From an uncultured Nitrososphaerota archaeon (GTDB lineage: Archaea; Thermoproteota; Nitrososphaeria; Nitrososphaerales; Gagatemarchaeaceae): a DNA stretch of 64,000 nt. The notes beneath the pieces were generated by a model, which saw only the letters and a program-made list of their open reading frames with translations, did not search any database and was not told where the DNA came from. Positions within the stretch are counted from its first letter, which is position 1; each line of letters begins with the position of its first letter. The translations under genes were made by a program, and so were the position numbers. The DNA lies in the NCBI GenBank assembly GCA_963718895.1, contig CAVRAG010000008.1:320001-384000 (forward strand), read 5' to 3'. This document shows positions 25,743-27,068 of the stretch, one piece after another.

Positions 25743-27068
25743 TTACGCCTTTGCGACTGCCTTCTCTACTTGGCCCTTGACGGTAACTTCGCGGACGATA
25801 CCCGCTGCCACTGTGGACCCCATGTCTCGGAGCGCAAATCTGCCCAATTCTGGGAATTCTTTGAAAGTTTCGAGTACTACTGGGCGCAAAGGTGTGATTT
25901 TTACAATAGCTGAGTCGCCGGTCTTGATGGTCTTGGGCTTCTCCTCGGTGGGCTGACCCGTCCTCGGGTCGATCTTGGCGATGATCTCGGTGATCGTCGC
26001 GGCGACCTGGGCTGTGTGGGCGTGCAGGACCGGCGTGTAGCCGGCCGCTATCGCCGTCGGGTGGAACACCACGATTATCTGCGCGAGGAACTCCTTGGCT
26101 ATGGTGGGCGGGTTGGCCGTCTCGCCGAGGACCGAACCCCTGTGGAAGTCGGTCTTGGCTACGCCCCTCAGGTTGAACCCGATGTTGTCCCCGGCCATCG
26201 CCTCCTGCATGGGGGTGTGGTGGGTCTCGATGGACTTGACCTCGGCCGGGAGGCCCTCCGGCATGATGACCACCGACTGGCCGACCTTGATCTTGCCGGT
26301 CTCCACCCGTCCCACCGGGACCGTGCCGACGCCCGTGATGGTGTAGACGTCCTGTATCGGGAGGCGGAGTGGCTTCTGGATTGGCTTCGGAGGCTCGGTG
26401 AACTCGTCGAGCGCCTGGAGGAGGGTCGGGCCCTTGTACCAGGGCATGTTCGTCGAGGCCTTGACCTCGTTCTCGCCGGTCCAGCCGGAGATGGGTATGA
26501 AGCGTATCTTCGAGACGTTGTAGCCAGAGGCCTTGAGGAGGTTCTCGACGTCCATCTTGGCGTCGTTGTACATCTTCTCGCTGTACTTCACCGTCTGGTC
26601 GTCCATCTTGTTTATCACGACGACGAGCTGGTTGACCCCGAGGGTCTTCAGGAGGAACGCGTGCTCCCTCGCCTGGCCGCCCGGCCCGAGAGCCGTGTCC
26701 TTCTCTCCGGTCTTGGCGGAGACGACGAGGACGGCCGCGTCTGCCTCGGAGGCGCCGGTGATCATGTTCTTGATGAAGTCTCGGTGCCCGGGAGCGTCGA
26801 TGAGCGTGTAGAAGTACTTCTGCGTCTCGAACTTCTGGAACGCGAGGTCGATGGTGACACCCCTCTCCCTCTCGTCCTTCAGCTGGTCGAGGACCCAGGC
26901 GTACTTGAAACTGTCACCGGCGCCGGTCTTCTCGGACTCGCGGGCGAACTCGTCTATCGTCCTCTGGTCGACCGCTCCGAGGTCAAATAGGAAGTGCCCC
27001 ATGCTGGTCGACTTCCCGTGGTCTACGTGACCGGTTACGATGAGGTTCAGGTGAGGTTTGTCTGCCAT
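25743..27068 (-). CDS. tuf: Translation elongation factor EF-1alpha
   Basis: [39 protein letters not shown]. Confidence 0.99.
   Translation of the reverse strand: [441 protein letters not shown]

Follow-up and report, generated by a model that had tools for sequence, protein, structure and literature searches.

Why does the codon usage of a conserved translation gene change abruptly within its last 56 codons while the protein that it encodes stays canonical? This question is raised by tuf, the gene for elongation factor EF-1alpha, in an uncultured Nitrososphaerota archaeon of the family Gagatemarchaeaceae. The gene lies in a stretch of 64,000 nucleotides (nt), here called the window (GenBank assembly GCA_963718895.1, contig CAVRAG010000008.1, positions 320,001 to 384,000), and coordinates are those of the window unless another contig or record is named. 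A first-pass annotation of the letters had proposed that the 3' end of tuf was replaced by a foreign allele, as happens when elements integrate or home into conserved genes. We conclude that the switch belongs to an old mosaic allele, shared with relatives, and that this allele lies where a selfish gene, conventional in type but previously undescribed, inserts. The parts of tuf that matter here are as follows, with G000 denoting the genome of the window and GC3 the GC content at third codon positions.

25743..27068, minus strand: tuf, archaeal EF-1alpha, 441 codons plus the stop codon TAA, with the GHVDHGKST GTPase motif in its translation.
25836..25913, minus strand: codons 386 to 411, a recoded, lineage-specific stretch in which 18/26 codons end in A or T (GC3, 0.31).
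25791..25835, minus strand: codons 412 to 426, a patch that diverges between the sister genomes G000 and G001 (33/45 nt identical).
25746..25790, minus strand: codons 427 to 441, whose nucleotides are conserved across the genus in the alignment despite the nonpreferred codons CAA, GTA, and GCA.
25733..25766, minus strand: a stem-loop across the tuf stop codon, with 5' arm GAGAAGGCAG and 3' arm CTGCCTCTC and a pyrimidine-rich run after it.
22700..25913, no strand assigned: a stretch of lower GC content that runs from the neighboring gene cassette into the 3' end of tuf, mostly 0.51 to 0.60 in a 200-nt profile versus 0.60 to 0.67 inside tuf.

G000 comprises 11 contigs with GC contents of 57 to 61%; the genomic range for the family is given as 54 to 62% in excerpts of its genome paper (PMC10640624). 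It is a metagenome-type assembly, 80.5% complete with 5.4% contamination. Related genomes are referred to as G001, G003, and so on, and compared sequence records by L numbers. The 3' alignment of tuf covered the last 120 codons in 19 genomes of the genus and in 23 cassette-bearing genomes of the family.

The hand counts of the first-pass annotation were reproduced exactly. From the TCA codon at 25911-25913 to the stop, 28 of 56 codons end in A or T, with the 18 listed above concentrated at the start of that run; only 4 of the 62 codons immediately before it do so, and 34 of all 385 upstream codons. GC3 was 0.912 over codons 1 to 385 versus 0.50 over codons 386 to 441, whereas the GC contents at first and second codon positions were nearly flat across the switch (0.58 and 0.39 versus 0.63 and 0.43). 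When a single break was fitted by maximum likelihood to the third-position state of the codons, the change point fell exactly after codon 385, and its log-likelihood gain of 25.3 was reached by none of 500 codon-order shuffles. By Fisher's test against codons 1 to 385, the difference had a P value of 1.6e-12 for codons 386 to 441 and of 2.8e-12 for codons 386 to 411. No comparable block was found elsewhere in the other 385 codons of tuf. The protein was 90 to 97% identical to its single-copy orthologues in 11 congeners (near-full-length matches) and 68 to 77% identical to those of the order's other families. The sharp synonymous switch within a canonical protein was thus confirmed.

Across the genome, 792 open reading frames (ORFs) of at least 250 amino acids (aa) had a GC3 of at least 0.80. 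The GC3 of the last 56 codons was 0.50 or lower in 6 of them, and 16 contained any 26-codon window with a GC3 of 0.31 or lower. Two other 3'-end drops were inspected, and both were frameshifted tails encoding nonsense protein; among the inspected cases, the tuf drop is therefore unusual in leaving the protein canonical. The two lie outside the window, on contig C8 of G000 at 1036396-1037718 (minus strand) and 1049119-1050237 (plus strand), in genes that we take to encode an aldehyde dehydrogenase and a dehydrogenase E1 alpha subunit. Their tails are rich in Arg, Gly, and Ala and their GC3 collapses, which suggests indel errors or pseudogenes in the assembly. An antisense ORF over the recoded part (25693..25956) was also considered and rejected. 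The same frame was mostly open in nine relatives examined, whether recoded or not, and its peptide barely changed, so this ORF is a by-product of the sense codons.

Comparison with related genes showed that the GC3 drop has two layers, an old general one in codons 412 to 441 and a lineage-specific one in codons 386 to 411. Over the last 30 codons, GC3 was reduced to some extent in 19/19 genes of the genus and 23/23 of the family set. The values over codons 412 to 441 were 0.67 in G000, 0.47 to 0.87 in the genus, and 0.40 to 0.73 in the family set, versus 0.66 to 0.92 over codons 322 to 385 in the compared genes. Over codons 386 to 411, GC3 was 0.31 in G000, 0.38 in G001, and 0.58 in G007, versus 0.73 to 0.92 in the other 16 genomes of the genus. 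The idea of a recoded tail of 56 codons therefore stands for codons 386 to 411 and falls for codons 412 to 441, where GC3 is low in all of these genes.

Within the lineage-specific stretch, tuf of G000 differed from that of G010 at about 16 of 78 nt. Fifteen of these differences ran from G/C to A/T, 9 of the 16 were G to A on the coding strand, and none altered an amino acid; the protein over these codons was identical in G000, G001, G010, and G011. Nucleotide identity between G000 and G001 was 91.5% over codons 1 to 385, 95% over codons 386 to 411, 73% over codons 412 to 426, and 98% over codons 427 to 441. The 15-codon window 406-420 had the highest synonymous diversity in tuf (0.65), and Ser418 was encoded by TCC in G000 and by AGC in G001, G010, G011, and G002. 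Over codons 427 to 441, 36 to 44 of 45 nt were identical between G000 and the 18 other genomes of the genus. Within this otherwise invariant terminal block, records L036 (G003) and L129 (G033) carry a 2-codon insertion at codon 433 (GCC GAG and GCA GAG, respectively).

The constancy of the gene end is explained in large part by the stem-loop over the stop codon. Its 5' arm is formed by codons 435 to 438 and its 3' arm lies directly past the stop, so that the last approximately 8 codons make up the 5' arm and the loop. The minimum free energy was -18.1 kcal/mol (z score, -4.2), and none of 200 shuffled sequences was as stable. The stem folds in 17 of the 19 genus sequences, is weak in G007, and is absent in G002. 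In G004 and G015, a two-sided compensatory change converts GCAGUC/GACUGC to GCAGCC/GGCUGC. The element is probably a terminator or other 3'-end element of tuf; a search of 22000-27400 against Rfam gave no match with an E value of 1 or lower. This conserved hairpin accounts in part for the general GC3 reduction in codons 412 to 441 and largely for the near-invariance of the last 15 codons.

The recoded stretch is not a recent acquisition of G000. For the 5' and the 3' part of tuf alike, G001 was the nearest relative. The stretch and its junction were also present in G001 itself and in two G001-type metagenome contigs (L133 and L135), and most of the stretch was present in G007. Over codons 386 to 411, identity to G000 was 74/78 nt for G001, 70/78 for G007, and 50 to 63/78 for the other genomes, with 7 of the 8 differences of G007 lying towards G/C. 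In a 4.6-kb RNA polymerase region, G000 and G001 were joined with support of 100/99, while the order of G007 and G010 was unresolved (69/64). A clade of G000, G001, and G007 was not rejected (approximately unbiased test [AU], P = 0.28 for the RNA polymerase region; P = 0.087 for the 5' part of tuf), and a single origin in a common ancestor therefore suffices. That G007 shares the stretch and G010 lacks it was considered as proof of transfer and dropped, since their order is unresolved, the three-genome clade is unrejected, and vertical descent is possible. Because G001 is nearest on both sides of the junction and shows the same GC3 drop, no recent foreign entry into G000 took place, and a recent replacement, as first proposed, fails. 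These comparisons indicate that the recoded tail is an inherited allele of a small clade, neither a recent arrival nor an assembly chimera. In public sequencing runs, the best holder contained at most 0.24 of the sampled words. Contigs made from four runs on 24900-26700 were pieces of 78 to 422 nt, none of which bridged the junction at 25913/25914, a result that is neutral for or against the junction.

Frameshifts were noticed in two conserved genes of the genomes compared here. At 49656-51203 (minus strand), in what we take to be a gene for a large RNA polymerase subunit, a 515-aa ORF matched the first approximately 377 residues of a 1,200- to 1,260-aa frame in G001, G007, G003, and G015. The counterpart in G010 was 603 aa, and the remainder of the large frame matched in another frame; this looks like a frameshift in the G000 assembly. 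The tuf genes of G017 (L041:990-2311) and G002 (L130) each matched as two overlapping pieces that lie in different frames (residues 1-130 and 121-440, and residues 1-279 and 289-441, respectively). In an essential gene such frameshifts are most likely assembly errors.

Three ORFs lie 3' of tuf on the opposite strand and make up the cassette.

25116..25730, plus strand: a 204-aa ORF, a cassette passenger, convergent with tuf across a 12-nt spacer; no Pfam match; GC3, 0.70.
23231..24592, plus strand: a free-standing putative homing-endonuclease gene for a helix-turn-helix (HTH) and double-motif LAGLIDADG protein, assigned from Pfam, a structure model, Foldseek, and motifs.
22474..22806, plus strand: a 110-aa ORF with an acidic tail; no Pfam match; adjoins the LAGLIDADG gene in some genomes.

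The LAGLIDADG protein matched Pfam LAGLIDADG_3 (PF14528) with 25.4 bits versus a cutoff of 22.5. It carries the motifs LLGILAGDASK (motif 1) and FVQGLADSDG (motif 2), and G224-D225 and D345-S346-D347 were invariant in 57 aligned homologues and in 14 full-length tuf-linked orthologues. Its AlphaFold model had a predicted local distance difference test score of 90.0 and a predicted template-modeling (TM) score of 0.84. Foldseek returned 38 matches in the PDB at an E value of 0.001 or lower, and those listed were led by PI-SceI, the TliVMA intein endonuclease, I-DmoI, and I-SceI. The top match was PI-SceI (VDE) at an E value of 2.4e-6; I-DmoI had TM scores of 0.60 to 0.66 (normalized to the target). 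A sequence search against PDB chains returned nothing (best E value, 0.34), so that the fold search alone was informative. Motifs and model together identify the product as a bona fide double-motif LAGLIDADG protein that is predicted to cleave DNA. Its homologues are labeled "hypothetical" or "transposase-like" in database sources. The ORF opens at 23165, and a database places the start of the gene at 23327; orthologues can be aligned with N-terminal residues that precede M55, and the alignment makes M23 (23231) the most likely start. At the very end of the gene (24560-24595, plus strand) is an 18-nt tandem duplication with 83% identity, giving the C terminus YLKTMNYLKN.

The cassette genes had a GC3 of 0.70 to 0.78 versus 0.83 to 0.91 for the flanking host genes. 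Passenger ORFs were compared across 11 syntenic loci of the genus. The 204-aa ORF had a homologue in G003 only, at the same position. Homologues of the 110-aa ORF stood beside the LAGLIDADG gene in G001, G017, and G033, with a different gene order in G033; its product may be a passenger, an inhibitor, or a partner. Farther from tuf, at 20117-21274 (minus strand), lies a gene for a 385-aa protein with weak HTH_Tnp_1, MerR, and AsnC-type matches, all below cutoff. It had no counterpart in the 11 loci and may be another insertion between conserved neighbors.

Orthologues of the endonuclease were tallied in 23 genomes of the genus and 97 of the family. In the genus, 8 of the 23 genomes had a tuf-linked copy, four of them open and four split or carrying stops. 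In the family, 27 of the 97 genomes matched with an E value of 1e-40 or lower, and removal of G223, a 33% paralogue-level match, left 26. The gene was directly behind tuf and convergent with it at 24/24 loci checked (23 plus G011); two short contigs were left unchecked. At least six copies were split or contained stops (G010, G033, G002, G011, G229, and G201), 14 were full length, and 4 were uncertain or cut by contig ends. The protein tree rejected monophyly of the genera (AU test, P = 0.0003 for g1, 0.009 for g15, and 6e-5 for g17). It also rejected sisterhood of G000 and G001 (P = 0.029, for a group named after the tree had been seen), which host genes join with 100/99 support. The endonuclease of G000 was instead sister to that of G003, and the 204-aa passenger is common to these two alone. 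Since the endonuclease tree is at odds with the host phylogeny, the gene arrived horizontally and repeatedly at one site. These data indicate a mobile cassette that is always found at the 3' end of tuf.

G017 provides an occupied site that can be compared with the empty sites of G012 and G006, which have identical flanks. Its cassette sits between tuf and the gene for a 99-aa membrane protein, which directly follows tuf in cassette-free relatives. A 69-nt segment made up of the final 20 codons of tuf, its stop codon, and 6 further nt, with the stop-codon hairpin in it, is repeated in direct orientation on either side of the cassette; among 23 loci, only G017 has such a repeat. The first-pass annotation had suggested looking for an orphan tuf 3' fragment. 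None was present in the 11 contigs of G000, where only chance matches came from tblastn (query, last 71 residues) and blastn (query, last 231 nt); the congener G017 does have an orphan copy of the tuf end beside its cassette. A genus-wide DNA search likewise returned second tuf-end matches in G000 at chance level only.

A second lineage of the endonuclease family, with about 30 to 39% identity, lies tail to tail with the ribosomal protein gene rpl7ae in 6/6 genomes checked. In G000 this paralogue (approximately 32% identity) occupies L097:1330-2577 (plus strand; contig C7, 425407-426654) and the L7Ae gene L097:2856-3263 (minus strand; 426933-427340). The arrangement recurs in G001, G003, G007, G010, and G012, and the L7Ae gene of G000 shows no 3' GC3 drop. 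This second lineage implies that members of the family habitually settle behind conserved translation genes, at their 3' ends.

How did the recoded stretch arise? Our tentative answer, to which we give a little less than an even chance, is that it is an old recombination (gene conversion) tract at the landing site of the homing endonuclease. The tract would have entered from the 3' end of tuf in the common ancestor of G000, G001, and probably G007. The endonuclease, or the recombination that moves its gene, would have broken a cassette-free chromosome close to or at the end of tuf, and repair would have copied in the donor cassette along with a 3' portion, variable in length, of the donor's tuf. 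If the donor chose A/T-richer codons, such repair could leave a tract ending at codon 385/386. Later, shorter events, for example a cassette swap in G000 or G001, may then have rewritten codons 412 to 426, while the terminal codons would stay constant as part of the stop-codon hairpin. Three points here are inferences: cleavage by the enzyme, the position of the cut, and the arrival of the 78-nt tract in such an event.

Several observations argue for this gene conversion tract. A cluster of purely synonymous changes is better explained by a templated copy of a functional allele than by a burst of mutations. The tract abuts the cassette-side end of the gene, with low GC3 from codon 386 to the terminus and a sharp inner boundary. 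The 73% patch over codons 412 to 426 and the TCC/AGC switch point to a second, shorter patch at the same end. Such a mosaic is what we would expect of nested tracts that spread from a break where the gene ends, our best explanation of the pattern. As for the original proposal of a foreign allele, its sharp synonymous block beside a mobile cassette is retained; what is lost is recent entry, given an allele inherited in a small clade, and no donor was found.

The missing donor is among the points that weigh against a conversion tract. A search of 401 genomes of the order revealed no donor allele; the best match to the stretch outside the genus was 77 to 79%, the level expected from any A/T-ending coding of this conserved peptide. 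Nor was one found in species-representative genomes or metagenome contigs (exact 32-mer) or in viral contigs (two patterns). The 32-mer occurred in two species-representative records, in the two G001-type metagenome contigs, and in one distant low-GC archaeon (L134); because the whole tuf of L134 has a GC3 near 0.2 to 0.3, that match reflects A/T-ending codons for the same peptide and thus codon usage alone. Both copies of the repeat in G017 are of the local clade type, the functional copy being identical at 60/60 nt to that of a cassette-free relative, so that insertion brought in no foreign tuf end. For genomes with sister endonucleases (G187/G294, G170/G000, and G170/G001), the 3' ends of tuf were no more alike than the 5' parts; for the pair G017/G058, the 5' figure was unusable because tuf of G017 is frameshifted. 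The element of G000 groups with that of G003, but its recoded stretch matches G001. The GC3 of the stretch (0.31) lies far below that of the cassette genes, a gap not to be expected had the tract and the present cassette arrived together in recent times. Nor did GC3 over codons 386 to 411 follow cassette state among genomes of the genus: it was 0.88 in G003 and 0.73 in G017, which have intact copies, and 0.58 in the cassette-free G007. As a single evolutionary event, the recoding permits no statistical association with the cassette.

Other explanations fit parts of these data. The main rival, possible but in our judgment unlikely, is recoding in place by selection on the DNA or RNA sequence, either as an immunity patch that removes the endonuclease site or as a T-run that stops convergent cassette transcripts. 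Every change is synonymous, almost all of them share a direction, and a GC3 of 0.31 in a gene of 0.91, below even the cassette, is not what import followed by amelioration would predict. G000 and G001, with the strongest recoding, have an intact endonuclease, whereas their near relatives G010, G011, and G002 combine broken copies with GC-rich codons; however, G003 and G017 have GC-rich codons next to intact copies. Sixteen changes in 78 nt also far exceed what the loss of one recognition site needs, LAGLIDADG sites being approximately 22 bp long. Synonymous divergence between G000 and G001 in the stretch (4/26 codons) was not clearly below that upstream (98 differences in 385 codons), and so no extra constraint is visible. 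A specific form of the immunity idea, which we doubt somewhat more, holds that the enzyme recognizes a conserved coding site of EF-1alpha and that genomes with active copies survive through synonymous recoding, so that tuf would be both homing site and shield. On the transcript side, the first T5 run met on the plus strand past the convergent ORF, which stops 12 nt from tuf, falls inside the stretch. Yet G003 has the same abutting convergent ORF without a T-run, and G007 has A/T-rich codons and the T-run without cassette or convergent gene; a T5-run terminator for the convergent gene was rejected on the basis of these two genomes. Ordinary homologous recombination with a diverged archaeal tuf allele, the adjacent endonuclease being a coincidence, appears rather unlikely. 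It would account for a sharp boundary, for synonymous changes only, and for the mosaic 3' end between sister genomes, and the phylogeny of the endonuclease had no detectable link with tuf 3' similarity. Coincidence, however, would have to explain why the tract ends precisely at the terminus that holds a site-specific mobile gene in 24/24 loci checked and why the other 385 codons contain no comparable block; here, too, no donor was found.

Explanations without transfer, or with a different kind of element, fare worse. Local mutation bias or drift, from repeated breakage, resection, and repair or from relaxed codon selection near the stop, is improbable, even though the last 30 codons lose GC3 in every gene of the genus and family sets and the excess of G-to-A changes relative to G010 would suit it. 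Such a process should yield a gradient, but a step was seen at one codon; codons 412 to 441, next to the stop, are less A/T-rich than the stretch farther in; and 16 other genomes of the genus, with the cassette or without, keep a GC3 of 0.73 to 0.92. Still less probable is a decayed integrase-type element that recombined inside tuf, supplied its own 171-nt gene end, and later lost the orphan end and the integrase. The tuf-end direct repeat of G017 would speak for it. In G000, however, a scan of the six ORFs from 20117 to tuf revealed neither an integrase nor a casposase domain; 15000-35000 contained no tRNA, 21000-27200 no notable flanking repeat, direct or inverted, and the 11 contigs no orphan piece of tuf. 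The stretch was in no viral contigs, and an alignment-based scan of these contigs found no viral relative of the endonuclease. Of the first-pass suggestion that an element integrates or homes into a conserved gene, the homing part is borne out by a LAGLIDADG cassette always at the 3' end of tuf, and the integration part lacks an integrase and an att-like repeat in G000. Finally, joining of two strains or species inside a conserved gene during assembly, which the first-pass annotation had named as something that would refute its reading, is very unlikely. G000 is indeed an incomplete and partly contaminated metagenome-type assembly with several frameshifted genes. Nevertheless, the junction and stretch recur in G001, a different species with 91.5% tuf identity, and in L133 and L135, with most of the stretch in G007, and G001 is nearest to G000 on both sides of the junction; because independent assemblies of a different species carry the same junction, chimerism is a very improbable source of it.

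Among known systems, the free-standing homing endonucleases of T-even phages (e.g., SegB), with co-transferred flanking markers, would be the closest analogue in mode of action to the cassette proposed here. By cutting the DNA of the recipient, homing endonucleases set off a non-reciprocal transfer of the genes that encode them and of the sequences at their flanks, according to the abstract of PMC2330249. In both cases the gene lies outside an intron or intein beside conserved genes, is patchily distributed, and moves, at tuf putatively, with flanks. The phage enzymes, however, are of the GIY-YIG or HNH type and act in phage coinfection, whereas the gene described here encodes a LAGLIDADG protein with an N-terminal HTH region in an archaeal chromosome. 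The predicted fold of the C-terminal approximately 200 residues resembles I-DmoI and PI-SceI (VDE) (E values, 2.4e-6 to 1e-4), including two motifs that each have a conserved aspartate. Identity to these enzymes is 14 to 21%; they reside in an rRNA intron or an intein, whereas the gene at tuf is free-standing and adds approximately 200 N-terminal residues with HTH signatures below Pfam cutoffs. Integrated elements of thaumarchaea and casposons (at EF-2) likewise use the 3' end of a translation GTPase gene as a landing place and keep the target frame whole (PMC6563490, in excerpts), but the G000 cassette has one to three genes and lacks an integrase, a casposase, terminal inverted repeats, and an att site. 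The excerpted text of that mobile-element survey (PMC6563490) makes no mention of EF-1alpha, LAGLIDADG, or homing, and that of the Gagatemarchaeaceae genome paper, which reports no cultured members, makes none of homing, LAGLIDADG, endonuclease, or elongation factor (PMC10640624). Our literature search turned up no account of free-standing LAGLIDADG genes next to tuf or rpl7ae in archaea.

EF-1alpha is a highly conserved and highly expressed protein used as a phylogenetic marker, and the block of foreign-looking or rewritten codons shows that even such genes are mosaics at sites used by a selfish element. Of greater use is the setting of the block, an uncharacterized family of free-standing HTH-LAGLIDADG genes at tuf and rpl7ae in soil and peat Thaumarchaeota of the Gagatemarchaeaceae type. 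The family bears the usual marks of homing, in that its genes are patchily distributed, keep to a fixed site, include decayed copies, and form a tree at odds with that of their hosts. If the immunity explanation were true, the rpl7ae lineage would suggest that endonucleases living off the 3' ends of translation genes form a wider family. Enzymes that proved active would be new long-target nucleases with natural targets in universal genes, and their activity would imply that species of these archaea exchange DNA and undergo break-induced recombination with one another.

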